DNA of 64,000 nt, taken from positions 14,069 through 78,068 of the forward strand of contig CAWAUM010000009.1 of assembly GCA_963785235.1 (NCBI GenBank), in the 5' to 3' direction. Shown piece after piece: positions 8,829 to 57,824 of this stretch. Each line of letters opens with the position of its first letter. Within the stretch, counting starts at the first letter, position 1. Origin of the DNA: an uncultured delta proteobacterium (GTDB taxonomy: Bacteria > Desulfobacterota > Desulfomonilia > UBA1062). The notes beneath the pieces were generated by a model, which saw only the letters and a list, made by a program, of their open reading frames with translations, did not search any database and had not been told where the DNA came from. The position numbers were made by a program, and so were the translations under genes.

Positions 8829-9051
8829 AATCCGGGTTTTGCGCTTGAATGCACCCATAAATACTCAATGCACAACAGGCGCTCTTTAAGTATAAAACTC
8901 ATAGTGCCATGGAATTGTTTTTTAATTAGGTCCGTTCAAAACATCAATCTTGCAGCCTTGAAGGACCGATATAATTAGCGCTCCACAAAGGCTGCAAGAT
9001 TGATGTTTTGAAGGAAAAAGGTTTTACGGTTCTTAAATGCAAAATCCGGAT
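8829..9051 (+). repeat. Dispersed hairpin element, full copy; loop orientation A
   Basis: Outer IR AATCCGGGTTTTGCGCTTGAA / TTAAATGCAAAATCCGGAT; inner arms TTCAAAACATCAATCTTGCAGCCTT / AAGGCTGCAAGATTGATGTTTTGAA. Confidence 0.92.
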
Positions 9052-9087
9052 CGATAAGATGGACTTGTTCCTATTCATGAACGAAAA

Positions 9088-9471
9088 CTACAGGATTGAT
9101 TTTACTGCCTGCAGCAACGGTTCGCGCATTATAGGTTTTTTCATTTCATAGAGCGTGTCGAAATTTTTTATCATTTTAAGATAATACTCAGGTGCAATCT
9201 GATCACCGCCGGATATGGCGATGATCTTCACATCGGGCGACAGCAGCCGCAGCTCCATGATGGTTTGCACACCGCCCATCCCGGGCATGAGGATGTCGGT
9301 AATGACCAGGTCCTGCCGGTGTTCGTTGAAAATCCTGACCCCATCATCCCCATTGCACGCCTCATCCACTTCATACCCTTCGCGTTCCAACATCTGCCGG
9401 AGCACATCTCTGACTGAATTATCATCATCGATAATAAGGATTCGAGCCAAATCATGCCCCCCTAGCACCAT
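9088..9471 (-). CDS. Single-domain response regulator (receiver)
   Basis: ILIIDDD, DLVITDILMPGMGG, IIAISG, KKP. Confidence 0.9.
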   Translation of the reverse strand: MVLGGHDLARILIIDDDNSVRDVLRQMLEREGYEVDEACNGDDGVRIFNEHRQDLVITDILMPGMGGVQTIMELRLLSPDVKIIAISGGDQIAPEYYLKMIKNFDTLYEMKKPIMREPLLQAVKSIL

Positions 9472-9651
9472 TATTATATCAAGTCTTGTATGATTTGCAA
9501 ATAACTGCTTTTATGAAGAACATATTCTTTTTAAGATGATAGTTGTCTTTTGTTGTAAGTCAACCGGGATTTTCTACAAATATGCTTTGAAATTGACAGT
9601 AAGTCTGTAATATCATCTCATCGTCAGAATTGAAAATACCAAAGGGGCCAT

Positions 9652-10989
9652 ATGGGAAGGATTGGTGCATTACTCGTTGTATTGTCCGCATCGATCTTTT
9701 CTGCATGCTCACATCTGGATAACGATGTTAAGCAGTGCTACACATGCACCAATCCGGTTGTCACTGTGCAGAGCTGTACCGCAGCCATTGATTCAAGACG
9801 GATTTTCGGGTTGAGGCTCGCCGACATGTATGTCCGCCGGGGGATCGCCCACGACAGCAATGGCGAGTATGACCGTGCGATCCCTGACTTCGACCAGGCC
9901 ATTGCCCTGAACCCGTATTTATTCGAGGCCTTCTACAATAGGGGGTATGCCCTGGAGAAAAAGGACGAGCACGACCGGGCGATCAAGGATTTCGACCGGG
10001 CCATCCAGCTGGTCCCGGACCACGCCGCCACGTTCATCAACCGAGGTGTATCATATCGCAACAAGGGCGATTATGACCGTGCAGTAAAGGATTTCACCAA
10101 GGCCATCGAAATTAATCCAACGTTATTCACCGCCTATTACTCTCGAGGGTATACCTTCGAATTAAAAGGCGAACACGACCGCGCAATGACGGATTTCGAC
10201 CAGGCCCTTGCCCTGAACCCGAAATTCCCACGCGTATTCATCACCCGTGGTTTCATTGAAGAAAGCCGCGGCGAATACAACCGGGCCATCCTTGACTATG
10301 ACCAGGCCATAAGCCTGAGCCCGCGGTATTCCACTGCGTTTTTCAACCGGGGTAACGGCTATCTGCGCGGCGGCGAATTCGACCGTGCCATCAAGGACTA
10401 CGATCAAGCAATTAAGGTCAATCCGAAATATGCAAATGCCTTCAATAACCGGGGTAATGCTTATCGCGGCAGGGGTGAGCACGATCGAGCGGTTTTGGAT
10501 TACAACCAGGCAATAGACTTGGATCCATACGATGCAAATAAATTCAAGAGCAGGGGTATTGCCGGATTCTGTATGGGGCAGTTCGGTTCTGCCTTGCAGG
10601 ACCTGGAAAAAGCAATGCAATTGAAGCCCGAAGATCCCTACGCGGTTATCTGGCTGTACCTGACCCGGGTCAAGCTGGGTGGAGATGCGAAGGGTGAACT
10701 GGCAAAGAACGCGGCACAGCTGAACCTGCAGGTATGGCCGAAAGAGGTGATCGGCCTGTATCTGGGGAAAACAACGAAAGAGACAGTACTCTCTTCTGCA
10801 AAAAACCCTGATCCGAAGAAGGAACAAGAAATTCGGTGCGAGGCCTTTTTCTACCTTGGCGAGGAGGCGTTGATACAAGGCAGAAAGCAAGATGCCAAGG
10901 TGCTTTTCCGAAAGGCCCGTGATACGAAGGTTACGCACTTTATTGAATACATCGGTACCGAGGTTGAGCTGAAGCGGCTGGTGCCATAA
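9652..10989 (+). CDS. TPR-repeat lipoprotein with NlpI-like C-terminus
   Basis: Lipobox FSAC; about 8 34-aa TPRs (AFxNRG..YDRAIxDxDQAI); DPYAVIWLYL, CEAFFYLG, FIEY. Confidence 0.9.
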   Translation: MGRIGALLVVLSASIFSACSHLDNDVKQCYTCTNPVVTVQSCTAAIDSRRIFGLRLADMYVRRGIAHDSNGEYDRAIPDFDQAIALNPYLFEAFYNRGYALEKKDEHDRAIKDFDRAIQLVPDHAATFINRGVSYRNKGDYDRAVKDFTKAIEINPTLFTAYYSRGYTFELKGEHDRAMTDFDQALALNPKFPRVFITRGFIEESRGEYNRAILDYDQAISLSPRYSTAFFNRGNGYLRGGEFDRAIKDYDQAIKVNPKYANAFNNRGNAYRGRGEHDRAVLDYNQAIDLDPYDANKFKSRGIAGFCMGQFGSALQDLEKAMQLKPEDPYAVIWLYLTRVKLGGDAKGELAKNAAQLNLQVWPKEVIGLYLGKTTKETVLSSAKNPDPKKEQEIRCEAFFYLGEEALIQGRKQDAKVLFRKARDTKVTHFIEYIGTEVELKRLVP

Positions 10990-11060
10990 CGGATCAAGTC
11001 TTTACTCATCATAACGCATAATCCAGTATAAGACCATCAAGCATACCCAGAATGGCTGTC

Positions 11061-11843: not shown

Positions 11844-11901
11844 GCCGGTCTCCCTTTTCGTTCATTATGCAGCCCTTATAGGTGCTTTGTCAGGCGAAAT
11901 C

Positions 11902-11917
11902 CTTGACCTGGGTCAAG
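11902..11917. promoter_or_regulatory. Fnr/Dnr-type palindrome CTTGAC-N4-GTCAAG
   Basis: Perfect 6-4-6 palindrome in the divergent gap between the Fe-S gene and the Crp/Fnr regulator. Confidence 0.65.
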
Positions 11918-12654: not shown

Positions 12655-12675
12655 GTAAACATACCCGGATCTTTT

Positions 12676-12823
12676 AACCCGGGTTTTGCAGTTAAGAGGA
12701 GTAAAAAAACTTGATCCGTTAAAAACCTCAATCTTGCAGCCTGGAAGGACCGGGAAATTAACATGCCGCAAAGGCTGCAAAATTGAGGTTTTTAACGGAC
12801 CTATTTAAAAACAGTTTCCATGG
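12676..12823 (-). repeat. Dispersed hairpin element, long flank truncated; loop orientation B
   Basis: Arms TCCGTTAAAAACCTCAATCTTGCAGCCT / AGGCTGCAAAATTGAGGTTTTTAACGGA (12715-12799). Confidence 0.9.
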
Positions 12824-13759
12824 TTAAACATCTCCGAGCCCGGGTTCCTCGCCTGGTCTCCATACCCTGATCCCCTCGGCCAGGAACAACCCTTCGACGG
12901 CATCCAGCTCGGAATCCGTAGGTACGCGTATATCAGGACCCTCCGGGAGCCCCAGCCACCGGCGTTTACCATCCCCCATGGGGTGGAAGGGCACTATGGT
13001 CAGGAAGGATATCCCGAGCCCGTTGAGAAAGCCTGCCCAGCCCTTTACATTTTCCTGTCCGTCTGTCATACCCGGCACCAGAGGAAGGCGTGGCCTGACA
13101 GGAGGGCCCTCCTGCCTGCCCCAGGCCTCCGCAAGGGACTTCAGGTTCTGTTTGATCTCCGTGTTGCTCACCCCGCATAACAGCCTGTGCCGGGACTCGT
13201 CATAGACCTTGATGTCGAAGAGCACGAGCTGAAGCTCCTGAAGGAGGGGCTGCAGCCTCTCCGGATTGAAGTATCCACAGGTCTCCAGGGCGACTTCAAT
13301 GCCTTCGGCGCGCAGCGACCTCGCCAGCCTGGCAGCAAATTCCGGATAGAGCGTCGGTTCCCCTCCGGTAAAGGTCACGCCGCCTCCGGAGGTCCTGAAA
13401 AGGGGAAACTCGGGTCTGAGTTCCTCCACGATTTCTTCGGAAGTCAGGGGGATGCCGAAGCGCGTCATGGCGCCCGAAGGGCAGCTGTCAATACAGGTAA
13501 AGCAGTATCTGCATTGTTCGGCATCCCTTTTCCCCACGTGGGCCAATGCGTTCCCCGGGCAGTTTTTTACGCACCTTGTGCAGTTGATGCAAAGATGCGA
13601 TTTGAAGGCTATGTCGACTACAGGCTTCCAGGATTCGACGTTCTGGCACCAGACACAGCGCAGGGGGCAGCCTTTGAAAAAGACCAGGCTCCGCATCCCC
13701 GGACCGTCATGGAGGCAGAAATGCTGCAGGGAGAAGATGAGCGGCTCAGGTGATGCCAT
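12824..13759 (-). CDS. Glycyl-radical enzyme activating enzyme (radical SAM with ferredoxin insert)
   Basis: HDGPGMR..FFKGCPLRCVWCQN, CINCTRC/CRYCFTC, GGVTFTGGEP. Confidence 0.92.
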   Translation of the reverse strand: MASPEPLIFSLQHFCLHDGPGMRSLVFFKGCPLRCVWCQNVESWKPVVDIAFKSHLCINCTRCVKNCPGNALAHVGKRDAEQCRYCFTCIDSCPSGAMTRFGIPLTSEEIVEELRPEFPLFRTSGGGVTFTGGEPTLYPEFAARLARSLRAEGIEVALETCGYFNPERLQPLLQELQLVLFDIKVYDESRHRLLCGVSNTEIKQNLKSLAEAWGRQEGPPVRPRLPLVPGMTDGQENVKGWAGFLNGLGISFLTIVPFHPMGDGKRRWLGLPEGPDIRVPTDSELDAVEGLFLAEGIRVWRPGEEPGLGDV

Positions 13760-16216
13760 GGGCCGTTCTCTCGATGATCTCGTCCTGCACATCGGCCTGG
13801 AGGTCGTTGAAATAGGCGCAGTACCCGGCCACGCGCACCACGATCCCCGGGTAGGATGCAGGGTCGTTTTTCGCAGCCTTTAGTGTCTCGGCATCGAGGA
13901 TATTGACCTGGACCTGCATTCCCCCCTGATCGAAATAATTTTTAAAAAGGTCATCAGTGCCTTACACCCCGTCTCCCCCTGGACCATCTTCCTGTCGAAC
14001 TTCAGGTTCAGGGCATGGCAGTTCATCCATTTTCTGCTGTCCAGGGACGCGGCCGAACGCAGCACCGCCGTGGGGCCCAGGCGCTCGGCCCCGTCCGCCG
14101 GGGCGAGGCCGTTGGAGAGGCGCTTTCCGGCGGGCCTGCCGTTGGGCAGTGCGCCGGTAACCTTGCCGAAGCCGATGTGGCAGGTCATGGAATAGAATCC
14201 CGGCACGTATTGCCCGCCCCGCGTGTTCTTGTGGGCCCAGAGCGCATCGGCGAAGGCGTCGGCTGCGAGCTGGGTCATCCGGTCCGCCTCGGGAATGCCG
14301 TTGCCGTAGCGGGGGAGCTTGGTGGCCAGCTCGAGGCGCAGGTCTTCATGGCCACGAAGTTGTCCTTGAGGATGCCCACGAATTCCTCCAGGCCGAAGCG
14401 CTTCTCATCAAAGACCATCTTCTTCAGGGCGTAGAGGGAGTCGCCCGCATCGGCGAGGCCTGCAGCCTGGACGGAGGTGTAATCGTAGAGGCCGCCGCCC
14501 CAGGTAACGTCCTTGCCCTTTTCCAGGCAGCCCTGGGTGATGATGGAGTTCACCGGGGTCGGCCGGGCCGTGCGATAGACCTCCTCCAGCCAGCCGATCA
14601 CCTTCACCATGTCGTCGACCCCGTGGCGGACCTGGGTGCGGAAGGCTTCAAGCACATCTTCAAAGGTCTTCATGGAAGATGCCGGCGGTGTTGCTGCACC
14701 GAAGCGGCTGCGGCCCTCTATCCTGGCCTTGCCGTGAAAGCGGCAGCCCTCGTTCAGGGCCAGCTCCAGACAGAGGGGCAGGTTGAAGAGCGCGGCGTCC
14801 GAGGAGTTGTAGGTGCGCCCCTGGCTCGCCATCTCCACGCAGCCGATGACGGCGTAGTCCCGGGCGTGTTCCTCAGTCATGCCTGCCTCTTTGAGTGCCC
14901 TGACCACTGCCGTGTCCCCGAAGAGAGAGGGTCGGCTGGTGCCCATCTGGAGAAGCTCCACGCTCTTGTGCAAGAACCAGTCGGGCGTGGCGGGATGGAT
15001 GCGGACGTGGACCGCCGGTTCGCGGGTCAGGACCTGGGCATAGGCGTCCAGGATAAGACCGGAAAGCTCGTTGGTCACGTCGTTTCCCTTCGCGTCCGTG
15101 CCCCCAAGGTGAAGGCCTGGGCGACCCCGATGCCACTGAAGAACTGGTCGACCCTCTGGGAGTAGAGCGGTATGGTCTCGCAGGTCTTCAGACAGAAACC
15201 GGCGGTCATCTCCGTGGCCTTCTCGGGCGTGAGCCTGCCCTGTTCGATATCCGCGCGATACAGCGGCAGGAGGACCTGGTCCATCCGGCCGAAGGAGAGG
15301 CCCTGCTCGAAGTCTTCCAGGTTCAATGCCACGTGGACAAGCCAGGTGGCCTGCAAACCCTCCAGGTAGGTCCGGGCCGGTTCAAAGGGGACCCTGCGGC
15401 ACGCCTTCGCCGATTCCAGGAGTTCGATCTTTCTCCATTCAGGAACACCCGGCCGGGAGGCCATATTCTGTGCCTCGTGAGCCAGATTTTCCGCCATCTT
15501 CCTAATGCCGTCGATCGTGATGACCACCGAGCGGAAGAAGGCCCTCTGATCGGCATCAAGAGGGGAGCCGTCCGCAAGCCTGCCCTCCTCCAGCCTTTGT
15601 CGGCCTCTTCATAAGGGCGGCACAAGCCTTCATGGACGACCATCCGGTAGTTTCCCACCTGATGTCCCACGCCAGCCTCCTCGGTGATGAAGTGGCGCTT
15701 GGCCCGGAAGAAATCCAGAAAATAGGAAATGCGCCCGGGCTTGAGGAGCGCTTTTGCTCCGACGCTTTTGAATGCGTTTCTGAGTCCTATGAAAAGGAGT
15801 TCCGCGGTCTCCCTGCCGCTTAACTTCAGGGGTATGGTCCGTTTCCCCAGCCGGAAGAAGTCCTCAAGGATGTTGATGGACCCTCCCTCGATGTAATAAT
15901 TGGCGGCAATGCGCTTGGAGGTCATGTTGCCGATGATGAGTTCACCATCGTAGATGCGGGGCGTGCGATGGGAGAATATATAGTTCAGCGCCAGGGCGCG
16001 CTGCACCAGGGAGTGCTCCGTTCTGGCGCTTTGGTGGCCCTGTCTGGACCTATGGAATTCCCCCAGGAGCCTCGGCCTCTCAAGACAGATCGAGTACGGG
16101 GTGGAAAACAGCTCCGCCCTGATGGAGGCAATACGCGGTGTGGGGCTTACGAACCCCCCGATCGGGGCTGCAGCTTTTGAGGCCTTGGTCTTCGTGACAT
16201 GAGGAAATGTAGCCAT
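13746..16216 (-). CDS. Glycyl-radical enzyme (PFL-like superfamily), subtype unknown; split by several apparent indels
   Basis: SFGRMDQ, YAVIGCVE Cys loop, GALPNGR..LSNG, and C-terminal GIVVRVAGYCAYF glycyl-radical motif ending at TGA 13746. Confidence 0.88.
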
Positions 16217-16673: not shown

Positions 16674-16688
16674 AGCTGATCTCCAAAA

Positions 16689-21327: not shown

Positions 21328-21344
21328 GTCCGGGCCTCAGGTTA

Positions 21345-21566
21345 AATCCGGATCTTGCGTTTGGATGTATCCATCAATACTTTAGGCACTTAAGGTAACC
21401 TTGAGCATAGAATTCATTACAGCCATGGTAGTGCTTTTTTTAATAGGTCCGTTCAAAACCTTTATCTTGCAGCCTCGAAGGACTGATAAAATCTGCGTTC
21501 CTCAAAGGCTGCAAGATAAAGGCTTTGAACGGAAAAAGGTTTTTGCGCATCTCAAACGCAGAATCT
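21345..21566 (+). repeat. Dispersed hairpin element, full copy; loop A
   Basis: Arms TCCGTTCAAAACCTTTATCTTGCAGCCT / AGGCTGCAAGATAAAGGCTTTGAACGGA (21448-21533). Confidence 0.92.
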
Positions 21567-21652
21567 ACGGTTTATGCAATTATCAGATTGATTAAACGGT
21601 CCGGCTTCTATAATATTTTGCGGTTACTTTGATAGAGAGAAGGAGTTGCTCC

Positions 21653-23444
21653 ATGAGTACAGGCATCAAACACGAACGGCTTAACAAGTGGGTTTCCGAA
21701 GTGGCTGACATGTGCATGCCCGAATCGGTCATCTTGTGCGACGGAAGCAAAGACGAATACGACCGCCTCATGGCGGGCATGGTTGCAAGCGGCAGTGCAA
21801 TCCCGCTCAAGAAGCGGCCCAACAGCTTCCTTTTCCGCTCGGACCCGAGCGATGTCGCCAGGGTGGAAGACCGCACGTACATCAGCACGCCTGATAAAAA
21901 TGAAGCAGGCCCAACCAATAACTGGGTCGACCCGGCAGAACTGAAACAGACCATGAAGGCCCTTTACAAGGGATGCATGAAGGGCAGGACCATGTATGTG
22001 ATCCCGTTTTCCATGGGGCCCATCGGGTCGCCCATCAGCAAGATCGGCATGGAGATCACGGACAGCCCCTATGTGGTGTGCAACATGCACATCATGACAA
22101 GGGTGGGGACAAAGGTTATGGAGGCCCTGGGCACGGACGGTGAATTCATCCCCTGCGTCCATTCCGTGGGCGCACCGCTGGAGCCGGGGCAGAAAGACGT
22201 CCCGTGGCCCTGTGCACCCATCGAGAAGAAGTACATCAGCCATTTCCCGGATGAAAACCTCATCTGGTCATATGGTTCCGGATACGGCGGCAACGCGCTG
22301 CTTGGCAAGAAGTGCCTGGCCCTGCGCATAGCATCCGCCATGGCTAAGAGGGAAGGGTGGATGGCCGAGCATATGCTCATCTTGCGCCTGACAAACCCCG
22401 AGGGAACCCAGTTCCATATCGCAGCGGCCTTCCCGTCGGCCTGCGGCAAGACGAATCTGGCCATGCTCCAGCCCACCATTAAAGGCTGGAAGTGTGAGAC
22501 CATCGGCGACGACATCTCCTGGATGAAAATCGGCCCTGACGGAAGGCTCTATGCCATCAACCCCGAGGCAGGGTTCTTCGGCGTGGCGCCAGGGACCTCC
22601 TATAATTCAAACCCCATGGCCATGGATACCCTGCACGAAAACTGCATCTACTCCAACTGCGCACTCACCGACGATGGCGACATCTGGTGGGAGGGAATGG
22701 ACGGCGAGCCCCCTGCTCCACGCCATCGACTGGAAGGGCCGCGACTGGACGCCTGAGAGCAAGGAGGTGGCAGCCCATGCCAATGCCCGCTTCACCGCAC
22801 CTGCCGGACAATGTCCTGTCATCTGCGCCGACTGGGAGAAGCCCGAGGGCGTGCCCATCGACATCTTTGTCTTCGGCGGCAGGAGGGCAGGGGTAGTGCC
22901 GCTTGTGAATGAGGCATTCAATTGGGACCACGGTGTATTCCTGGGTGCGACCGCTTCGTCGGAGACAACGGCGGCCAATATCGGAGACATCGGGGCGCTC
23001 AGGCGCGATCCGTTTGCCATGAAGCCGTTCTGCGGCTACAACATGGGCGACTACTTCCAGCACTGGCTGAACATGGGCGACAAGCTGGGCAAGAATGCCC
23101 CGCGTATCTTCTATGTGAACTGGTTCCGCAAAGGCGTGGCAGGTAAGTTCCTCTGGCCGGGCTTCGGCGAGAACTCAAGGGTATTGAAGTGGATGTGCGA
23201 CCGCATCGACGGCAAGGCTTCTGCTCGTGAAACCTCCATCGGCCTGATTCCTGAGGAAGAAGACCTTGACCTGAAGGGCCTGAACATCCCGCAGGAAAAC
23301 CTGCACGAGCTCCTGAAGGTCGACGTGGATGTGTGGAAGGCCGAGATGCCGAGCCTGGAGGAGCACTTTGCCCAGTTCAAGGACAGGCTGCCCCAGCGCA
23401 TTATGCAGCAGCTCGATGCCCTGAAAGAACGGCTGAACAAGTAG
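21653..23444 (+). CDS. pckG: Phosphoenolpyruvate carboxykinase (GTP); apparent indel near 22715
   Basis: [50 protein letters not shown]. Confidence 0.95.
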
Positions 23445-23530
23445 AGAAAAAATACCATAGGCAGGGGCCGTGCGTGATTCAGCAGGTGGTAGTGCGGTCC
23501 CTGCTTTTTTTATCCAGTTATCTGACTTTT

Positions 23531-23748
23531 ATCCCAGATTTTATGCTTGAAGAGGTGTAAAAACCTTTTTCCGTTCAAAACCGTTATCTTGCAGCCTTTG
23601 AGGCATGCAGATTTTATGGGTCCTTCTCGGCTGCAAGATAACGGTTTTGAACGGACCTGTTTAACAAAAGCAAAACCATAGTCTATGGCTAAAGCCACCT
23701 GAAGTGCATTGAGTATGCATAGGTACATTCAATTTCAGAATCCGGATT
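23531..23748 (-). repeat. Dispersed hairpin element, full copy; loop A
   Basis: Perfect 27-bp arms TCCGTTCAAAACCGTTATCTTGCAGCC / GGCTGCAAGATAACGGTTTTGAACGGA (23570-23655). Confidence 0.92.
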
Positions 23749-23811
23749 TACGAGCCTTATTGACTCCATGTGCCATTGGATTGTATGACAATAAGACGAG
23801 AAAGGAGATAC

Positions 23812-24934
23812 GTGGATTTGCACCCTGCCATTACACCGTTTGATGAAGCAGTACGCTTCAGGAGGCAGCGCCTTGAAGAGGCGGCATCCAGCGGCAGGAA
23901 GGTCATCGGCTATTTCTGCACCTATACCCCTGTGGAGATCATCCATGCCGGCGGCTTTATCCCGGTGCGCATCTGGGGAGGGACCGGCCGGATTGAGAAG
24001 GCCTATTCGCTGGTGCCGAACTTTATCTGTCCGTACATGAGGCTTTCCCTGGAAGGGGCCTTGAACAACGAGTTCTCGTTTCTGTCCGGGATCGTGCAGG
24101 GGTACACCTGCGATGTGGCCTGTGGTGCCGTGAATATCTGGAAGGATAACTTCAGCCTGGAGCTCTGCCACAGCCTGCCTTTACCCTATAACGACAACCA
24201 GGATGCACGGGAATTCCTGCGGGCCGGCATTGAGGAGCTTGCCTGCAAGCTGACACGGATCGGGGGCAGCCTCACGGATGAATCGCTGAAAGACTCGCTT
24301 GAGCTTTATGAAGAGATAAGGACGATCCTTGCATGGTTATTTGAAATGACGTGCCCAGGGCAACCTGCCGCTTACGTGCCGGTGATGTCCTGAGCGTTGT
24401 GCAGGCGTACTTTGTCACCCCGCCTGAAGAGTACCTGGAAATGCTCAAGGCCTTGATGGTGTACCTGAAGGGCGCCCCGGTATCAATAACCCCAGGGAAT
24501 ACCGGTCCTCGTATCGGGCAGCGTCGTAGAGGATGCACAGGCCTTTACGATCATGGAGGGCCTTGGCTTCAAGGTCGTTGCCGATGATCTCTGTACGGGC
24601 CGGCGTGGCTTCATACCGATAGCCGGTCTCGGGGAGACGCCCATGGAGCGTCTTATAGACAGGATCATGAACAGGTTTCCCTGCCCCTCACGGTCGCACC
24701 CCAGGGAGAGGGTGCCGCTCCTCCTGGAGCTCATCAGGGCATCCCATGCAAAAGGGGTCATCTTCGTATTTCAGAAGTTCTGCACGCCGCACCTGGCGGA
24801 CCACCCCAAGGTTGCACAAGGGTTGAAAGATGCAGGTCATCCCCAGCATAGCAATCGAACTCGATGAGTCCGGGCTCATGGAGGCGCAGGTGGCAACAAG
24901 GCTGGAGACCTTCTGGGGCATGTTGAGGCAATAA
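23812..24934 (+). CDS. 2-hydroxyacyl-CoA dehydratase / benzoyl-CoA reductase family subunit (HGD-D), several apparent indels
   Basis: IGYFCTYTPVEIIHAGG, PNFICPY, YTCD, VADDLCTGRR, QKFCTPH, TRLETF. Confidence 0.82.
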
Positions 24935-24935
24935 G

Positions 24936-26186: not shown

Positions 26187-26206
26187 AAAAGCGGGTTCTT
26201 TTTATA

Positions 26207-26395
26207 AATCCGGATTGTGCGTTTAAGGAGTGTAAAAACTTGGTCCGTTCAAAACCTTTATCTTGCAGCTTTTGAGGAACGTTAGTTTTATCAGCCCTTC
26301 AAGGCTGCAAGATAAAGGTTTTGAACGGATCTATGAAAAAAAGCACTACCATGGTCGTAATGAGTTCTATTCTTAAGTTCACCTGAATCGCACGC
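26207..26395 (-). repeat. Dispersed hairpin element; loop A
   Basis: Arms TCCGTTCAAAACCTTTATCTTGCAGC / GCTGCAAGATAAAGGTTTTGAACGGA (26244-26329). Confidence 0.92.
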
Positions 26396-26400
26396 AATGC

Positions 26401-26775
26401 CTATGGATTGTTAATCTTGAATTTGACCGAGGCCTTTGTATCACCTTCAATAATCAGTATGGCTCCATACGATCCCTTGGGAAGGTCATTGAACCACCAC
26501 CATTTGGTCCAATTCTCAGGAACATAATCCTTGTATGTCTTCACGACAGTTCCTGTAGAAAGGTCACTTATCCGAACCGTTACATTATGCCCGCCACAGC
26601 CTGTAACAACCACTGCGGGTATTTCGCCTGCAGCGTATTGATCTACCCGCATAGTATAGTTACCGGCCTTAACATCAACCTGACGGGACATGTGTATGTC
26701 CTGGGGAACAGCAGCACAGCCGAACATGAATACTACTGATATGAATACGAGAACGGATGATAATAGTTTTATCAT
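26401..26775 (-). CDS. Hypothetical lipoprotein
   Basis: MIKLLSSVLVFISVVFMFGC lipobox-like signal; AAGGAG RBS. Confidence 0.65.
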   Translation of the reverse strand: MIKLLSSVLVFISVVFMFGCAAVPQDIHMSRQVDVKAGNYTMRVDQYAAGEIPAVVVTGCGGHNVTVRISDLSTGTVVKTYKDYVPENWTKWWWFNDLPKGSYGAILIIEGDTKASVKFKINNP

Positions 26776-32452: not shown

Positions 32453-32668
32453 ACTTGGCGTTTAAGAAGCGTAAAAACCTTTTCCGTTCAAAACCTTTAT
32501 CTTGCAGCCCATGAGGACAGCAGATTTTATCAGTCCTTCAGGGCTGCAAGATAAAGGTTTTGAACGGACCTATTAAAAAAAAGCAATACCATGGTCGTAA
32601 TGAGTTCTCTACTTAAGGCCACCTGAAGCGCATAGAGCATTATAGGTACATTCAATTGCAAAATCCGG
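32453..32668 (-). repeat. Dispersed hairpin element, full copy; loop A
   Basis: Perfect 28-bp arms TCCGTTCAAAACCTTTATCTTGCAGCCC / GGGCTGCAAGATAAAGGTTTTGAACGGA (32483-32568). Confidence 0.92.
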
Positions 32669-32729
32669 CATACATGGTATCATCCATATCCTTGTCTCTA
32701 ATGCTTAAGCCATGAGGGAATGACAGGTT

Positions 32730-33918: not shown

Positions 33919-33969
33919 ACCGTAAAAATGTGTTGAGTTCCTCCGAGGAACTCAGCACATTTTTACGGT
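33919..33969. repeat. Near-perfect 51-bp intergenic palindrome
   Basis: ACCGTAAAAATGTGTTGAGTTCCT-CCG-AGGAACTCAGCACATTTTTACGGT (one G.T pair). Confidence 0.85.
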
Positions 33970-35691: not shown

Positions 35692-35709
35692 TCCATGTGG
35701 CTTTGGATT

Positions 35710-35933
35710 AACCCGGGTTTTGCGTTTGAAGACGCGTAAAAACCTGATCCGTTCAAATCAGTCATCTTGCAGCCTTTGCGGAAGGCTCATTATCTCGGTT
35801 CTTTAAGGCTGCAAGATGACTGATTTGAACGGACCTATTTTTAAAAACAATTCCATGGTCACTAATAGTGTTATGCTTACAACCACCAGAGATAAATGGG
35901 GCAATTATGGGTACATCTAAACGCAAAATCCGG
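35710..35933 (-). repeat. Dispersed hairpin element, full copy; loop A
   Basis: Perfect 29-bp arms TCCGTTCAAATCAGTCATCTTGCAGCCTT / AAGGCTGCAAGATGACTGATTTGAACGGA (35748-35833); outer IR CCGGGTTTTGCGTTT / AAACGCAAAATCCGG. Confidence 0.93.
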
Positions 35934-35946
35934 CATCAATAACATT

Positions 35947-37291: not shown

Positions 37292-37339
37292 TATTATGAG
37301 ACCACTGTAGAACCTTCCAAGCATTTTGTTGCGATATCA

Positions 37340-37402
37340 AAAAACCTTACCGTTCAAAACATGCATCTCGGTGAAGCCGAGATGCATGTTTTGAACGGTC
37401 CA
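37340..37402. repeat. Mini-variant of the hairpin element (inner arm and loop replaced)
   Basis: Perfect 23-bp arms ACCGTTCAAAACATGCATCTCGG-TGAAG-CCGAGATGCATGTTTTGAACGGT (37349-37399), preceded by AAAAACCTT as in the short flank. Confidence 0.85.
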
Positions 37403-37570
37403 ATTTTTGGTTTTCATCTCAGAGATTTAAGGTTATGCAAGGGTCTTATATATCACCTTCGCTATCGCCTCTTTGATTGCATCATGACATCCTGACCAAA
37501 ATACGCTATATCACAGGAGCAGCCACGAACCCAAAGGTTGCGTTATTTTCATAAAGAGCAGGAGGAAACA

Positions 37571-43798: not shown

Positions 43799-44834
<1,036 letters not shown>

Positions 44835-48333: not shown

Positions 48334-48346
48334 ACTGAATAAGGAC

Positions 48347-48485
48347 TTGTTTTTAAAATAGGTCCGTTCAAAACCTTAAAGATCGCAGCCTTTGTGGAAT
48401 GCTGATTGTAGCGGTCCTTCAAGGCTGCGATCTTTAAGGTTTTGAACGGATCAGGTTTTTACACTTTTTGAACGCGAAATCCGGG
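48347..48485 (+). repeat. Dispersed hairpin element, long flank truncated; loop B
   Basis: Perfect 30-bp divergent arms TCCGTTCAAAACCTTAAAGATCGCAGCCTT / AAGGCTGCGATCTTTAAGGTTTTGAACGGA (48363-48450). Confidence 0.92.
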
Positions 48486-48780
48486 GTACTATAAAAAGCA
48501 TTTGCACGTTGTTTTTTTAATTACCTGAGAGTATAAATGCCCTGTCTCCTGTGCAGAGTAACGGATTGACGGGGGCTAAGAGCTGAAAAAATCCGATGCA
48601 ATGTGCCTGCATAATTGAATGTTCTGATATAGGGCATGAGCATTTATAATTTTTTTGTATTATGCACAGGAGACCATCCTTTCATACCTCACCTCCTTTT
48701 TTAATAGTATTGAATCGAAAACAAATAGCACATACAATGGATGCATTGACCTTAAAAAGGGCATTGAAATGTCTTGGAAT

Positions 48781-50889: not shown

Positions 50890-50904
50890 TATATCTGCGT
50901 GGGG

Positions 50905-51050
50905 GCCACGGAAGTGCTTCTTTAAATTAGGTCCGTTCAAAACATCAATCTTGCGGCCTTTGTGGAATGTCAATTTTATCGGTCCTTTAAGGCCGCAAGA
51001 TTGATGTTTTGAACGGAAAAGGTTTCTACGATTCATAAACACAAGATCTG
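50905..51050 (+). repeat. Dispersed hairpin element; loop B
   Basis: Perfect 29-bp arms TCCGTTCAAAACATCAATCTTGCGGCCTT / AAGGCCGCAAGATTGATGTTTTGAACGGA (50932-51017). Confidence 0.92.
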
Positions 51051-51174
51051 AAATTGAAGATCCAGCATGTAAACAGGCAGGAGTAATCACAGGCAGGACT
51101 AATCACTTGATTCTTTCGACGTAAGACAGTACATGGTACCTGAAATTATCCTCATGAGACAGGAGAATGACACT

Positions 51175-53690: not shown

Positions 53691-53735
53691 GGAAGGGATT
53701 GTTTTATCAGAAATTGCGACCGATGATTACCTTTC

Positions 53736-53955
53736 AGTCCGGATGTTGTATTTAAGATGCGTAAAAAACTGATCCGTTCAAAACATCAATCTTGCGGCCT
53801 TTGTGGAATGTTAATTTTATCGGTCCTTTTAGGCCGCAAGATTGATGTTTTGAACGGACCTGGTTTAAAAACAATACCGCGGTCACTATGAGTATGAGGC
53901 TTAAAGCCGCCAGAAGTGCATAGTATGTTCTTGGATTTAATTACATAATCCGGGT
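53736..53955 (-). repeat. Dispersed hairpin element, full copy; loop A
   Basis: Hairpin 53773-53858 with the short flank on the left. Confidence 0.92.
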
Positions 53956-55218
53956 TCAGTAATACTCAAGCAGCCCCGAACGAAGGGCCTCTGCCTGAAT
54001 GATCTTCTGCCATTTCTTAACATGTGATCCGGACAGGTCCAGTGCAAGGGCCTTTTTATAGAGTGCATCCATATCTTCAGCAGTGTGATCTTCGATGAAT
54101 GCATCCTTGAAGAGCTCGATCTCCTTGCCTGATAGCTCCAGATCCATAAAGGCCGTGGCGCGTTCCACAGCGATCTTCTTGCCGGATGCAAGCCTGATCT
54201 CTTTGAAAGGGTTGTGGTAGGTGATGCTTGGGAGCATTGTGGCAATGGCGTAAGACAGCTTCATTGTCTGTGCTATGCCCTCAGGTTTCCCATCCATACG
54301 GATTATGCGGATCATGCCTGCCCTTGTTATGTCCTCGAACGGTTTGGCCATGAGCGGTGCCCACCGTGCCCGTGAGGACCTGGTCTGGAACCGGTGGCGG
54401 TAGATGAGCGAGCAGTAGTTGACGCCCAGGTTTATGTCTTTGTCCACGGCATACCTCAGCAGCTTCAGTGCGGTAAGTTCGGATTCGAGGATGCCGATCT
54501 GGGGCCCGTGGAGAAAGGTGTAGCCGCGCCCGGCCAGTTGCTTCCAATTGTGTTTTGTGCAGCGGATCTGGTGGAGGTTCAGGAAGGATATCCCGTAATC
54601 GGCCATCTCCCAGATCTTTGCCTTCATGATCTCCATGTCTTCGGGTATGGCCGGTATCTCCACGGTGACGTTCTTTATGATGCGTGAGGCCATCTTTGCC
54701 TTGGACAGGTCGTATCCGGTGGCTGTAATGTTGAAGCGGATCTCATTCAGCCCGGCATCAGCGAGCATGCTGAGCTTTTCTTCCGTGGCAAGGGTGCCGT
54801 TGGTGTAGAGCCACAGGTAGATACCATCTCCGAGGCGTTTCTTGATATGTCTGACGAACGAGATGGTCTTGTCAAAGGTGAGCAGGGGCTCGCCGCCGCT
54901 GATACTCGCCCCGGTGAAGTTGAATTCTTCGAGGTAGTCTGCATAGTCTTCAGGCGATGAGAAGGTCAGCGTGCTTGTGCCCGGCTCGTCGGCAATGTCC
55001 TGCCTTGCAGGGCAGAAGAAGCACTTAGCGTTGCACAGGTTGTTGATGAAGAGGCACGACCATGACCCTTCACCGCAGAGACGGCAACCGGGTGAGAGTT
55101 TTTTATGAAAGGGCTTGGTGTTGTTGAATAGAAAAAGGCCTTTCTTTCTGATATCTTCCAGCAGGTTTTCTCTTATTGCTTCTATTTGTGCAGCCTCTTG
55201 TTCCTTGAGCCACTTCAT
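53956..55218 (-). CDS. Radical SAM protein, uncharacterised
   Basis: SPGCRLC, CNAKCFFC, SGGEPL, LYTNG, DAGLNEIRF. Confidence 0.88.
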   Translation of the reverse strand: MKWLKEQEAAQIEAIRENLLEDIRKKGLFLFNNTKPFHKKLSPGCRLCGEGSWSCLFINNLCNAKCFFCPARQDIADEPGTSTLTFSSPEDYADYLEEFNFTGASISGGEPLLTFDKTISFVRHIKKRLGDGIYLWLYTNGTLATEEKLSMLADAGLNEIRFNITATGYDLSKAKMASRIIKNVTVEIPAIPEDMEIMKAKIWEMADYGISFLNLHQIRCTKHNWKQLAGRGYTFLHGPQIGILESELTALKLLRYAVDKDINLGVNYCSLIYRHRFQTRSSRARWAPLMAKPFEDITRAGMIRIIRMDGKPEGIAQTMKLSYAIATMLPSITYHNPFKEIRLASGKKIAVERATAFMDLELSGKEIELFKDAFIEDHTAEDMDALYKKALALDLSGSHVKKWQKIIQAEALRSGLLEYY

Positions 55219-55401
55219 CGCAGCACATCAGAGCCGTACTCATCCAGATTGTTTTGGACAATGGCAGCATGATCAAGTTCGGGTATCAGCATGGGTATTT
55301 CCTGCAGTGTCTTCGTAACGCATCTCTAAGAGGACAGATGGGGCTATAGGTGAAATAACACACCAGGTCAACACGTGAGTTGGTTAAGCTATTTTCTGGG
55401 T

Positions 55402-55457
55402 AATTCAGATTGTGCGTTTAAGATAAGTAAAAAAACGGATCCGTTCAAAACTCCATC
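55402..55457 (-). repeat. Truncated copy of hairpin element (outer IR, short flank and start of arm)
   Basis: AATTCAGATTGTGCGTTTAAGATAAGTAAAAAAACGGATCCGTTCAAAAC. Confidence 0.75.
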
Positions 55458-55545
55458 ACTTGATAATAATCCTGGAACTGCCGAAAAACATCTGATAGAT
55501 CATGCCCAACAAAAGGGATGCACCATAAGGAGAGATATTTTCACC

Positions 55546-55887: not shown

Positions 55888-55917
55888 TAAGTCTCCCTTA
55901 GGATCTGCCAGGGATTC

Positions 55918-56139
55918 AAACCAGATTTTGTGTTTGATTGTATCCATAATTGATTCATAAATCTCTGGTGACCTTAAGCATAGCACGCATAGTGATCATG
56001 GAATTGTTTTTAAAATAGGTCCGTTCAAAACATCAATCTTGCGGCCTTTGTGAAATGTTAATTTTATCGGTCCTTTTAGGCCGCAAGATTGATGTTTTGA
56101 ACGGATCAGTTTTTTACTCATCTTGAACGCACAATCTGA
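55918..56139 (+). repeat. Dispersed hairpin element, full copy; loop B
   Basis: Hairpin 56020-56105 with the long flank on the left. Confidence 0.92.
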
Positions 56140-56198
56140 GATGAAAAAAATCAGGCCCGAAATCCTCGCAATCCGAACAGCTGTCAAAAGACCAAATT

Positions 56199-57539
56199 TT
56201 AAAGAGGGATGTCCTTGAGCAGTCTGTTAGCAGGCGAGCCTTCAACGGTCCGGCTGAATTCCTTAAGTATCCCTTGTAACCCTTCAGGTTCATCTTGTGG
56301 GGGCATGGTGATGCAGGCAACGCCGTATCCCTCCAGCGCCTCAATGACTGAAGTCACGGTAATGGTGCCCGGGTCCCTGGCAGGCATGTAGAGGGTTTTC
56401 TCATCGCCCGGCGAAGCCGCCTCAACGATGATACCGGTTTCGCACAGCTCATGAAGTATCTGTTTTGTGAGGACTACCGGCAGGCCAAGCTGATCGGATA
56501 TGTCGGAAGAGCCGGGCGCGGGTGATCCCGTTGCGAATCCTGCCACAACACGGTGCGCGACTGTAAGGCTGATGAGCTTCTTTTGAGAGGGATTTATCCT
56601 GTGCATGTCCAGCTCGATCCCGCATGCATGTGCATTTTGATATGCGTAAGAAAGCTCGGCCCCGAACAGCACGATGAACCAGCTGAGCTGAAGCCATACA
56701 AGGAATAGGGGCAGGGCGGCAAAACTGCCGTAAATGGCATTGTAATGGGCCACCCCGACCTGAAAGTAGATGTAGATCCTCTGCACCACGACAAAGATAA
56801 TCCCCGCCACCAGGCCGGCCGTAAGACATGAAGCAGTATTTACCTTGGTATTGGGTATGAAGGCATACATGAAGGCAAGGAGTATCCATGTGAGGCAGTA
56901 GGGGATCAGTTTTATCAGGGTTGTTATGAAGAAGGAGAAGATCCCCACCCCGAGGCTGCCGGTGATGGAGTTCATCTGTGCATTGACCATGACCGTAGAG
57001 CTGCCGGAGATGATGATGAGGATAGGTGCGACAAGCATGATTGCAAGGTAGTCGCTGACCTTCCGGCTGAACGACCTGTGCCTGGTCACACCCCAGATGC
57101 TGTTAAAGGAAAGCTCGATGTTTTCGAGCACCTTGATTACCGACCACAGGAGCACGATGATGCCGACTCCGGCAAGCAGACCGCCTTTTGTGCTGTCCAG
57201 GAGACGGCGGGAAAACTCAATGACATACACCACCACCTCCTGGTGATCGGCCATATCTTCCATGAGGCGCTGCTCCAGGAGTTTCTGAAAACCGAATCCC
57301 TTGGCAATGGCAAAGGCTACGGCAGCAATAGGGACGATGGACATGAGGGTGAAGAAGGTGAGAGCGGATGACCGCAAGGCGCAATTGTCAGCGTCATATT
57401 TTCTCAAGGTGATGGAAAGGATCCTGAAGGAGGCTATGAAAAACCTTTTTATCCTCGGTAAGTCCTTAAGGGAGATTTCCCATATGCCCTGCTTCAGGAA
57501 AAATCTGATGGCTTCAAGATTATCTACTTTGTCCTTCAT
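56199..57539 (-). CDS. YihY/BrkB family membrane protein with C-terminal wHTH-like domain
   Basis: SALTFFTLMSIVP, IELSFNSIW, YNAIYGSFAALP..GAE. Confidence 0.92.
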   Translation of the reverse strand: MKDKVDNLEAIRFFLKQGIWEISLKDLPRIKRFFIASFRILSITLRKYDADNCALRSSALTFFTLMSIVPIAAVAFAIAKGFGFQKLLEQRLMEDMADHQEVVVYVIEFSRRLLDSTKGGLLAGVGIIVLLWSVIKVLENIELSFNSIWGVTRHRSFSRKVSDYLAIMLVAPILIIISGSSTVMVNAQMNSITGSLGVGIFSFFITTLIKLIPYCLTWILLAFMYAFIPNTKVNTASCLTAGLVAGIIFVVVQRIYIYFQVGVAHYNAIYGSFAALPLFLVWLQLSWFIVLFGAELSYAYQNAHACGIELDMHRINPSQKKLISLTVAHRVVAGFATGSPAPGSSDISDQLGLPVVLTKQILHELCETGIIVEAASPGDEKTLYMPARDPGTITVTSVIEALEGYGVACITMPPQDEPEGLQGILKEFSRTVEGSPANRLLKDIPL

Positions 57540-57677
57540 GGATAATCCCCTCCTCGTCACATTCAAATGCACCCCTGAGTGCTTGATATTTTAAATAACC
57601 GCAAAGGATGTAGTGCAAAAATAGAATCATCCTTGAACAAATTCTACCACGATCTCAAATCCAGGGGTAGTTTCATC

Positions 57678-57824
57678 TAATGGTAGTGTTTTTAAATCAG
57701 GTCCGTTCAAAACCTCAATCTTGCAGCCTTTGTGGAACGCTAACTTTATCGGTCCGTCAAGGCTGCAAGATTGAGGTTTTGAACGGATGAGTTTTTTTAC
57801 ATATCTTGAACGCAAAATCCGGGT
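57678..57824 (+). repeat. Dispersed hairpin element, long flank truncated; loop B
   Basis: Perfect 29-bp arms TCCGTTCAAAACCTCAATCTTGCAGCCTT / AAGGCTGCAAGATTGAGGTTTTGAACGGA (57702-57787). Confidence 0.92.

Follow-up and report, generated by a model that had tools for sequence, protein, structure and literature searches.

The hairpins in the analysed stretch of 64,000 nucleotides (the window) are the long inner palindrome of an undescribed MITE (miniature inverted-repeat transposable element) of ~215-225 bp. Their arms probably stay matched because the palindrome is re-templated as DNA, by template switching within a copy and by transfer from copy to copy. The earlier note on this DNA had treated the hairpin as the whole element, but it is the inner module of a MITE of ~220 bp. 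The palindrome is 86 nt long, with a stem of 27-28 bp and an asymmetric loop of 32 nt, and is present in 12 copies in the window and 84-88 copies genome-wide. Its motif pair had 10 matches in the window and 0 in 100 shuffles, which excludes chance. The genome containing the window (G000) was compared with G011, a separately assembled sister species, and with the related genomes G002, G004 and G008. The family members in the window are as follows, with matched positions of the element HMM in brackets.

8824..9056, minus strand: full-length MITE copy (HMM 7-242), palindrome 8931-9016, outer right arm decayed; the G011 ortholog has an identical loop in the same orientation, and the copy is absent from G002.
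12670..12826, plus strand: right-truncated MITE copy (HMM 5-162) between convergent ORFs, palindrome 12715-12799, loop flipped relative to the element.
21340..21567, minus strand: full-length MITE copy (HMM 15-242), palindrome 21448-21533; the G011 ortholog (L038:815-900) has another core (5 mirrored differences) and another loop, and the G004 and G008 sites are empty.
23526..23757, plus strand: full-length MITE copy (HMM 6-246), palindrome 23570-23655; the G011 ortholog (L038:2933-3018) is nearly the same, with one difference confined to a single arm, and G011 has a second tandem palindrome (L038:3163-3250).
26201..26408, plus strand: MITE copy (HMM 5-213), palindrome 26244-26329; the palindrome of the G011 ortholog (L038:5542-5627) belongs to another type and has 6 mirrored differences.
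32454..32677, plus strand: MITE copy (HMM 19-243), palindrome 32483-32568; the G011 ortholog (L038:11917-12002) differs at 2 mirrored positions and in the loop.
35704..35943, plus strand: full-length MITE copy (HMM 5-244), palindrome 35748-35833, core TCAGTCAT.
48334..48492, minus strand: truncated MITE copy (HMM 6-164), palindrome 48363-48450, flipped loop; several substitutions and a 1-nt insertion, all mirrored, and two private mirrored alleles.
50897..51058, minus strand: truncated MITE copy, palindrome 50932-51017 of GCGGCC type, with its loop in flipped orientation with respect to the element; against the G011 ortholog the arms are identical and the loop is inverted, and the G002 site is empty.
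53730..53962, plus strand: full-length MITE copy, palindrome 53773-53858 of GCGGCC type (DNA fold -47.7 kcal/mol, z -7.55), canonical loop, target duplication TTCAG; the G002 site is empty.
55913..56149, minus strand: full-length MITE copy, palindrome 56020-56105 of GCGGCC type, flipped loop; against the G011 ortholog the left 62 nt are identical, 3 positions differ on the right, and the loop is the reverse complement.
57680..57831, minus strand: truncated MITE copy (HMM 5-157), palindrome 57702-57787, flipped loop; the G002 site is empty, and G011 retains just ~100 nt.
139..239, plus strand: partial MITE copy (HMM 6-104) that runs from the left terminus through the left arm into the loop.
10988..11033, minus strand: MITE left-end fragment (HMM 7-53).
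55397..55457, plus strand: MITE left-end fragment (HMM 6-66), ending just past the outer arm block.
37333..37415, unstranded: member of a related short-hairpin family (12 genome copies), with a 23-bp stem, a 5-nt loop, and the outer stem block of the main family, preceded by an A-run and followed by a T-run.

The terminal inverted repeats of the element are 19 nt long and begin CCGGATTTTGCG. Its consensus termini (CCGGATTTTGCGTTTAAGA and an imperfect reverse complement) form the closing stem when the DNA is folded, and a second, weaker hairpin lies to the right of the palindrome. Copies measure 205-250 bp from terminus to terminus, which is within the size of MITEs (<~300 bp), and no ORF is needed to account for them. 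The element HMM matched 129 loci, 38 of them full length. The target duplication is 5 bp and AT-rich. Both termini were located in 22 of the 38 full-length copies examined, and the flanking bases matched at at least four of five positions in 12 of the 22, whereas shuffled partners averaged 5.7 and never exceeded 12 in 2000 shuffles; the margin is weak because all targets are AT-rich. At one clean empty site, a single ATTAAA in G000 corresponds to ATTAAA, element and ATTAAA in G011; TTCAG stands on both sides of the 53.7k copy, and TTTAT flanks the G002 copy. G000 (genome 93% complete) yielded no autonomous insertion sequence with such termini; where two terminal motifs were spaced 0.4-4 kb, they belonged only to adjacent MITE copies or fragments. 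Rfam 15 gave 0 window matches at the gathering score, and one copy had sub-threshold matches to miRNA precursors (22-30 bits, cut-offs 63-144).

The element was lacking in G002 at the five window sites checked, with empty sites at 50.9k, 53.7k and 57.7k, and G011 held it at most window sites where compared. The insertions therefore post-date the split from G002 and mostly pre-date the split from G011. G004 and G008 had empty sites at 21.4k and 23.6k, related copies were also found in G008, and 8 sites occupied in G011 are empty or deleted in G000. Genome-wide, 83 of 84 copies are intergenic, and gaps between convergent genes hold 33 copies compared with 13.5 expected. The copies lie mostly close behind gene ends, at a median distance of 35 nt from the upstream stop.

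The arms of each copy covary. They were scored in 78 copies genome-wide, these being the 84 full-length loci without five that had no locatable ends and without the degenerate C3:336561. Arms of the same copy mismatched at a mean of 0.72 stem positions, whereas arms paired across different copies differed at a mean of 4.76 (minimum over 2000 partner shuffles, 4.09). There were no differences in 45 copies, one in 19, two in 10 and at least three in 4; arm correction is thus not fast, since 33 of the 78 copies have one mismatch or more. A covariation alignment was built from 44 copies of the window and the sister genome (two species, 28 pairs, 1189 cells). Pairing was found in 99.5% of the cells, compared with 86.8% in shuffles, with 6 non-pairs and 5 G-U cells, and it fell to 30-45% when the partner was slid by 1-3 columns. 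Of the 28 stem pairs, 17 had changed on both sides, and none of five measures was reached by any of 500 shuffles. Mismatches of wobble type were strand-symmetric (13 on one strand, 16 on the other), and private stem alleles were mirrored in 8 cases and confined to one arm in 8.

The arm pairs quoted in the earlier note at 8.9k, 23.6k, 26.2k, 32.5k, 35.7k, 48.4k and 57.7k are all present in the sequence, as are the TTA/TAA variant at 12.7k and GCGGCC/GGCCGC in exactly three copies (50.9k, 53.8k and 56.0k); the mirrored 1-nt insertion at 48.4k corresponds to columns 16 and 75 of alignment A1. Rather than a few decaying subfamilies, which would have spoken against its reading, 59 distinct left arms were found among the 78 copies. 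Its proposal that the variable core is a copy-specific address does not hold, as up to five copies have one core in common and neighbouring copies share cores. The stem has two blocks with hardly any variation, TCCGTTnAAA and ATCTTGCAGCC, which are conserved more strongly than the element's own termini and may be the fixed protein-binding ends that the note placed around the core. In the copy at C1:594k, the stem is lengthened into the loop.

Mirrored change was also found at orthologous sites, where the 13 valid G000/G011 pairs had 23 mirrored and 7 single-arm differences. Independent hits would give ~0.7 mirrored pairs by our own arithmetic (53 changed positions among 702), which bears out the earlier claim that mirrored changes exceed what independent mutation yields. 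By our count, arm change at these sites was about one eighth of loop change. Loops were taken as retained at an identity of 0.88, the 99th percentile of non-orthologous loops, which eight G000/G011 pairs reached. One mirrored change, at L032, occurred in place with a securely retained loop, and three more were found in two borderline pairs, L005 and L018 (loop identity 0.84 each).

Loops also invert at fixed loci. Relative to the host element, the loop was canonical in 49, flipped in 27 and unclear in 3 of 79 copies (27 flipped among 76 scorable). The eight retained-loop orthologous pairs were flipped in four cases (L029, L032, 50.9k and 56.0k) and unflipped in four (L020, 23.6k, 53.7k and 8.9k). 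The core of L032, CTGTCAT, is found in no other full copy and in only one arm of one further copy; as there is no donor copy, the inversion at L032 took place in situ. The flips in the trio at 50.9k, 53.7k and 56.0k are explained equally well by transfer between neighbours in direct chromosomal orientation. Absolute loop orientation was the same in 23 of 32 neighbours <20 kb apart, which was matched by 59 of 5000 shuffles. The loop drift without compensation described earlier was thus seen in part, but the loop also inverts as a block. Such inversion is the other hallmark of the template switching that the earlier note had suggested, and it was seen even between orthologs with nearly identical flanks. 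Both features of a template-switch-maintained inverted repeat, arm homogenisation and spacer inversion at a fixed locus, were therefore found.

Whole palindromes are replaced at orthologous sites, and their history is uncoupled from the host element's. Outer element identity was 0.76-0.94 for orthologous copies, compared with a mean of 0.60 for non-orthologous copies, and in five orthologous pairs both arms and loop had been replaced despite the orthologous outer element. Hairpin and outer identity were hardly correlated (r = 0.10, 3081 G000 pairs). In the trio at 50.9k, 53.7k and 56.0k, hairpin similarity was 0.97-0.99 and that of the outer parts 0.50-0.65, and the near-identical tract stopped exactly at the palindrome ends. 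Pairs <15 kb apart had a hairpin identity of 0.806 versus 0.770, a value reached by 0 of 5000 random subsets; their outer identity showed no excess (706 of 5000). The earlier idea that one arm is copied from its partner thus agrees with the mirrored changes and the loop inversion, but much of the difference between copies reflects exchange of whole palindromes.

Within a copy, template switching during replication between the 27-bp arms would rewrite one arm from the other, turning a single-arm mutation into a mirrored pair or removing it, and a switch running across the spacer would leave the loop inverted. Between copies, whole palindromes may pass mostly among neighbours and in either orientation, with the conserved stem blocks serving as homology. 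From the sequence patterns, we infer that the molecular route is replication-fork template switching rather than other recombination. The earlier note had also considered the hairpin as an intermediate in mobilisation; no tie was found, and the transposition ends lie 45 and ~90-110 nt outside the hairpin. Since the two stem blocks are almost invariant, some sequence-specific constraint is also needed, and selection on these blocks is likely. Unbiased arm copying is insufficient where arms change less than loops and the blocks outlast the termini, so that selection or biased transfer also acts.

Selection alone could in principle act on the hairpin as RNA or single-stranded DNA (a terminator, mRNA stabiliser or protein-binding site), with independent and then compensatory mutations and with the differences between copies accumulated in old master lineages. 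The nearly invariant stem blocks fit this explanation, as do arms that change far less than the loops and outer parts at orthologous sites, the position of copies close behind gene ends and between convergent genes, and the related short hairpins, whose A-run and T-run flanks resemble two-way terminators. However, selection cannot invert loops, four of the eight securely orthologous loops are inverted, and 23 mirrored against 7 single-arm differences at ~7-8% divergence are far beyond independent double hits. G-U intermediates are not favoured, mismatch types are strand-symmetric, tandem contexts show no orientation preference (21 versus 17), and the hairpin history does not follow the element history. 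Nor were the hairpins called by a simple consensus scan for intrinsic terminators, which have a GC-rich stem, a short loop and a T-run directly behind the stem; here the loop measures 32 nt, and a T-run stands 4-5 nt past the stem on one strand only, which explains the lack of a call. We therefore consider selection alone unlikely.

It is less likely still that the palindrome is a mobile cassette, shifted among MITE docking sites in either orientation by a dedicated hairpin-recognising enzyme, with the arms as recognition ends read by structure instead of sequence. The trio's tract ending exactly at the palindrome ends would suit such a cassette, as would the decoupling of hairpin identity from the host element, the likeness of neighbours, the two orientations, and the existence of palindrome-less copies, including the sole copy found in G002. 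However, the outer stem blocks are common to all copies, so that ordinary homology accounts for the tract ends equally well, and all 84 palindromes are at the same place within a MITE, none of them free-standing. Three of the four hairpin-less G000 copies retain part of the left arm, and one deletion is bounded by a 6-nt direct repeat; these look like deletions rather than excisions. No enzyme could be linked to the palindrome, and no such hairpin lies within 700 nt of either of the genome's two Y1 transposase genes. In the most specific form, an autonomous exchangeable cassette whose putative dedicated enzyme binds the two invariant blocks, the free helix between them would be a duplex-only spacer, which we regard as slightly more improbable again; if true, it would be a chromosomal flip/flop hairpin system nested in a transposon. 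Consensus polishing, raised in the earlier note, or an assembly artefact might have forced the arms to match, and an assembly of only 13 contigs with several split window genes would fit long-read indel errors. However, the same pairing, core diversity and flips occur in G011, a separately assembled other species, related copies occur in G008, and four unrelated public runs yielded contigs that stack on the element; an artefact is thus exceedingly improbable.

How long stems keep perfect pairing during sequence change is an old question, and template switching has been proposed as an answer, mainly through rare events on rRNA trees and reporter assays. The present family offers ~130 natural replicates in two sister species, with orthologous sites, empty sites for polarity and a loop long enough for unambiguous scoring of inversion. 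Mirrored changes, changes in a single arm and replaced cassettes can all be quantified, and with them the relative rates of arm copying, inversion and transfer. The family is also a warning that covariation in a repeated hairpin alone is no evidence for a functional RNA, and what causes stem blocks to outlast transposon ends in conservation is a real question that it raises. The underlying mutation process seems to be of a known kind, here seen unusually clearly. In the parts of the literature consulted, template switching is described with arm homogenisation and inversion of the loop or spacer, and quasipalindrome mutation resembles the present case in multi-base mirrored changes and stem extension into the loop as well (PMC8794818, PMC5941160, PMC8604942). 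The inverted loops described there in rRNA are mostly 4 nt and up to 7-8 nt (PMC8794818), whereas in the present family, with ~130 copies in two species, about half of the orthologous pairs differ by inversion of a 32-nt loop, and whole palindromes also pass between copies.

Like bacterial MITEs such as Correia, ERIC, RUP and Nezha, the element is small and non-coding, has terminal inverted repeats, a short target duplication, many intergenic copies and strong DNA folding, and occupies sites that are empty in related genomes. Unlike in those elements, the inner palindrome with its 27-bp stem is better conserved than the termini and has its own history of flips and exchange, and no autonomous partner was found in the genome. 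Parvovirus and poxvirus flip/flop hairpins, which form the ends of linear replicons and flip by hairpin transfer or resolution, likewise have an asymmetric loop between perfect arms and two inverted forms, whereas the hairpin here lies inside a repeat of the chromosome. Integron attC sites, with the core GTTRRRY, are similar in that conserved paired blocks flank a centre that varies but still pairs; however, the present copies are scattered among housekeeping genes in both orientations rather than in cassette arrays, and the outer block does not match GTTRRRY. REP/REPIN sequences with RAYT transposases, whose Y1 (RAYT) gene is flanked by the repeats, are also intergenic palindromes with stems that vary between copies yet remain paired, but here there are terminal repeats and a target duplication, and the hairpin is 86 nt instead of 20-40 nt. 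Within 700 nt of the two PF01797 matches, at C11:76115 and C1:221771, there was neither a hairpin pair nor a terminal motif; the Y1 gene at C1:221771 has a single outer-block motif ~650 nt away.

The part of the window from 8931 to 57787 holds 12 copies of a near-perfect 86-nt palindrome. Read inwards, the first arm has TCCGTTnAAA as its outer stem block, then a variable core of about six positions, then an inner stem block (ATCTTGCAGCC), which leads into an asymmetric 32-nt loop; the second arm is the mirror of the first. A genome-wide HMM made from clean copies found 88 palindrome loci in the source genome (G000; 3.91 Mb in 13 contigs). The earlier note had observed that the hairpin arms diverge between copies but stay complementary within each copy, and our analysis confirmed this: all of its quoted arm pairs, the three window copies with GCGGCC/GGCCGC and, at 48.4k (labels of this kind are kb positions in the window), the 1-nt insertion mirrored between the arms, are present in the sequence. 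The 78-kb contig that contains the window (C9) carries 13 of the 88 palindromes, about 8 times the mean genome density.

To score the arms, 84 full-length loci were passed to the hairpin finder; the ends could not be placed in five, and one degenerate locus was discarded, leaving 78 copies of the source genome. The two arms of a copy mismatched at a mean of 0.72 stem positions (no difference in 45 copies, one in 19, two in 10 and at least three in 4), compared with 4.76 positions between arms of different copies and a minimum of 4.09 in 2000 partner shuffles. The left arms comprised 59 distinct sequences. In an alignment of 44 copies, drawn from the window and from the sister-species genome (G011), a 28-pair helix was paired in 99.5% of 1189 cells, against 86.8% after shuffling, and both sides had changed in 17 of the 28 pairs (140 cells). 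None of five measures was attained in any of 500 shuffles, although kinship alone can beat such shuffles without structure; the ortholog comparisons below and a slide control, in which shifting the partner by 1-3 columns left only 30-45% pairing, are independent of this effect. Five G-U and six non-pairs made up the cells that were not Watson-Crick, and wobble-type mismatches were divided 13 vs 16 between the strands. The pairing signal is strand-symmetric and therefore does not point to selection acting on a single RNA strand. Genome-wide, single-arm changes recurred at the CG dinucleotide in the outer block (stem columns 2-3), with TCCG changed to TCCA in four copies and to TCTG in two, which may reflect a deamination hot spot at methylated CpG.

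Extending the alignment outward gave an element consensus of ~230 nt, running from a left terminus through a spacer of ~25 nt, the palindrome, an A-rich stretch and a second, imperfect hairpin (CCATGGTCACTATGAG ... CATAGAG..CATGG) to the right terminus. The left terminus begins CCGGATTTTGCGTTTAAGA, and the right terminus is its imperfect reverse complement; in the DNA fold of one copy (-47.7 kcal/mol, z = -7.55) the termini formed the closing stem. An HMM of the full element matched 129 loci, 38 of them at full length. Many copies break off near model position 160, some comprise only the left or the right end, and four lack the palindrome. A 5-bp AT-rich target duplication, with four or five of the five flank positions equal, was seen in 12 of 22 full copies in which both termini were located, compared with a mean of 5.7 and a maximum of 12 in 2000 shuffles of partners, a margin weakened because the targets are uniformly AT-rich. 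The 53.7k copy is flanked by TTCAG/TTCAG, and one clean site reads ATTAAA once in the source genome and ATTAAA, element, ATTAAA in the sister genome. Empty sites were found at 50.9k, 53.7k and 57.7k in a related genome of 87-90% nucleotide identity (G002), and at 21.4k and 23.6k in two others (G004 and G008). The element is therefore structurally a MITE, save that a scan of the source genome for pairs of the terminal motif found no autonomous partner. A REP/RAYT system was also considered and rejected, since neither of the two Y1 transposase (RAYT) genes is flanked by a hairpin.

The exact inner motif occurred in two of 41 related genomes, with 51 copies in the source genome and 31 in the sister genome. 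With up to two mismatches, the terminal motif was found 26 times in the source genome, 23 times in the sister genome and once each in G002 and G008; two more distant genomes gave one match each, apparently by chance. The G008 copies have a palindrome with different inner blocks, which are again mirrored. Of 35 loci found in the species collection, a single genome supplied 31. The others were three true members, present as single loci on short or terminal contigs in other bins, and one unrelated hairpin. No Rfam match at gathering score was found in the window, only weak miRNA-precursor look-alikes. Three element-specific strings were found nowhere in the literature text searched, an inner-stem 11-mer gave only unrelated eukaryote papers among the ten matches listed of 69, and a topic search (MITE, compensatory change, terminator) returned nothing on this family. 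The MITE family therefore appears undescribed, as far as these literature searches reach.

Flanking DNA is 90-95% identical between the sister and source genomes, and both flanks of 29 distinct sister-genome palindrome loci mapped to a single place in the source genome. At eight of these 29, the source interval was 100-230 nt shorter because the element was absent or partly deleted. Where both genomes had the palindrome, outer element identity was 0.76-0.94 on the left side and, for the most part, 0.76-0.91 on the right side, compared with a mean of 0.60 and a 95th percentile of 0.71 for non-orthologous copies; judged by these identities, the outer element at such sites is orthologous. Eighteen pairs were compared hairpin to hairpin, comprising 13 from the main comparison and the copies at 23.6k, 50.9k, 53.7k, 56.0k and 8.9k; ortholog pairs with arm indels (e.g., L001 and L035) were missed by the hairpin finder and left out. 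The arms of the 13 pairs differed at 23 mirrored and 7 single-arm positions, where independent hits would give ~0.7 mirrored complementary pairs (our calculation, from 53 changed positions of 702). By our count, single changes at orthologous sites were roughly 8 times rarer in the arms than in the loops.

The strict threshold for loop identity (0.88) is the 99th percentile of non-orthologous loops, which in their best orientation had a mean identity of 0.665.

Loop orientation in orthologous palindrome pairs of the source and sister genomes, by loop identity
Identity of at least 0.88 (8 pairs), same orientation: L020, 23.6k, 53.7k, 8.9k
Identity of at least 0.88 (8 pairs), flipped: L029, L032, 50.9k, 56.0k
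Identity of 0.82 to 0.88 (3 more pairs), same orientation: L005, L028
Identity of 0.82 to 0.88 (3 more pairs), flipped: L018

The loop was thus inverted in four of eight orthologous pairs at the strict threshold and in five of 11 at the looser one. At 56.0k, the left 62 nt are identical to the sister ortholog, the right side has only three differing positions and the loop is the reverse complement; the arms match except for a decayed inner block in the left arm of the sister copy. The core of L032 (contig C10, 28k), CTGTCAT, is present in no other full copy and besides in only one arm of one further copy. With no donor copy, the loop was therefore inverted in place, and the mirrored T-to-A change of the outer block arose in place as well. 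Five other pairs (L014, L017, 21.4k, 26.2k and 32.5k) showed two to six mirrored arm differences and loop identities of at most 0.75 in both orientations; here the host element is orthologous, and its entire palindrome has been replaced. At the 23.6k site, the sister genome has two palindromes 230 nt apart (L038:2933-3018 and 3163-3250), the second of a different type, and the source genome has one.

The palindromes also have a history apart from that of their host elements. Over 3081 pairs of source-genome copies, hairpin identity and outer-element identity correlated at only r = 0.10. The hairpins at 50.9k/53.7k/55.9k are 0.97-0.99 alike in host elements 0.50-0.65 alike, and those at 21.3k/23.5k/26.2k/32.4k are 0.84-0.92 alike in hosts 0.58-0.73 alike. 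In the trio at 50.9k/53.7k/56.0k, near-identity stops at the palindrome ends. Pairs less than 15 kb apart had a hairpin identity of 0.806 vs 0.770, attained by none of 5000 random subsets, with no excess of identity in the outer parts (706 of 5000 subsets). Furthermore, C12:130552 is a chimera, with the common inner block in its left arm and the rare ACCAAAGCAGCC block in its right arm; the rare block is mirrored elsewhere (C1:236513 and C1:720356).

Copies were oriented by their outer parts; in 52 of the 54 cases that could be decided, the immediate flanks gave the same orientation as the termini and second hairpin. In this frame, 49 of 79 loops were canonical, 27 inverted and 3 unclear. Copies could differ in state even where their stems are identical and their loops nearly so; in the GCGGCC trio, the 50.9k and 56.0k loops are flipped and the 53.7k loop is canonical. 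Loop orientation had no link with GC-skew sign as a marker of replication strand (30/13 vs 19/14, p = 0.34). In tandem contexts, orientation relative to transcription showed no preference (21 vs 17). Neighbours less than 20 kb apart had the same absolute chromosomal loop orientation in 23 of 32 cases (attained by 59 of 5000 shuffles) and the same element orientation in only 18 of 32, a pattern that fits transfer by direct alignment between oppositely inserted elements.

These observations fit DNA-level templating of two kinds, namely template switching between arms and transfer of palindromes between copies. Switching between arms would convert or erase single-arm changes, and a switch spanning the spacer would leave the loop inverted; a palindrome passed from copy to copy would have its boundaries within the stem blocks common to the copies. 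Template switching is described in bacterial inverted repeats and RNA-gene hairpins, where it can invert loops, extend stems and produce compensatory changes of several bases (PMC8794818, PMC5941160, PMC8604942). The earlier note's reading, in which one arm is copied from the other, is accordingly supported in part only, copy-to-copy transfer being the second component. Neither loop inversion nor the excess of mirrored changes can come from selection alone. Templating does not explain two features: conservation of the fixed stem blocks exceeds that of the element termini, and single changes are ~8 times rarer in the arms than in the loops. A sequence-specific constraint must also be at work, perhaps a binding protein, terminator activity in both directions or transfer biased to the consensus. 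A simple terminator scan did not call the hairpins.

A self-mobile palindrome cassette would explain both the tract ends and the palindrome-less copies. However, the palindrome always occupies a fixed place within the MITE and never lies outside it, and no linked enzyme was found, both Y1 transposase genes lacking a flanking hairpin. In addition, the palindrome-less source copies resemble deletions, one of them with a 6-nt direct repeat at its ends. The left-end-only fragments C1:692664 (vs L031) and C1:305653 (vs L019) are deletions of elements kept in full in the sister genome; their break points lie within a palindrome arm, and one junction carries a 6-nt direct repeat (GAAGGA). They look like palindrome-stimulated deletions. 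An assembly artefact that makes the arms match is excluded by the independent sister genome. Contigs from four public DNA runs were short and ended at the repeat, with two opposite-strand joints linking different copies. Arm homogenisation and spacer inversion are known as processes; what is new here is the setting, with an inner palindrome flipped in about half of the orthologous pairs, the exchange of palindromes between copies independently of the host transposon, and how large the natural data set is.

The only MITE copy found in G002 (L050, G002:C17:285100-285600) is full length with a TTTAT duplication and lacks the palindrome, its left and right spacers being joined via TCGGA; the copy lies just behind a native palindrome of terminator-like form, the arms of which are similar to the outer stem block of the MITE. 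The loop at C1:594642 is now a near-perfect palindrome (CGTGAAT|ATTCACG at the centre) compared with its sister ortholog (L024), and one arm has an uncompensated C-to-A change.

Among palindrome-bearing copies, 83 of 84 were intergenic. With rough ORF calls, convergent gene pairs enclosed 33 copies where 13.5 were expected; the counts were 38 vs 55.9 expected for tandem contexts and 12 vs 13.6 expected for divergent contexts (p = 4e-8). The window genes are ordinary metabolic and housekeeping genes, with no transposases. Several appear split or shortened (14275-16216, 21629-22756, 23770-26186 and 43947-44834): a PFL-like enzyme and the 2-hydroxyglutaryl-CoA dehydratase D component are each spread over two ORFs, PEPCK ends at 375 aa, and part of the N-terminal domain is missing from GAPDH. 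Possible causes are frameshifts, pseudogenes or assembly indels.

A second family consists of ~12 short palindromes, each preceded by an A-run and followed by a T-run; the stem is 23 bp long and the loop 5 nt. Its members include:
Window 37333-37415, short palindrome
Contig C1:238690, short palindrome
Contig C1:466076, short palindrome
Contig C3:123013, short palindrome
Contig C3:296820, short palindrome
Contig C11:239730, short palindrome
Others in the source genome

The outer stem block is common to this family and the MITE palindrome. Its stems likewise vary in a mirrored manner, its loops read TGAAG or CTTCA within one flank orientation, and some members are joined to the MITE left end. 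A separate palindrome between genes (window 33919-33969) has 25-bp arms that are 96% complementary and a similar ACCGTAAAAAT outer block.
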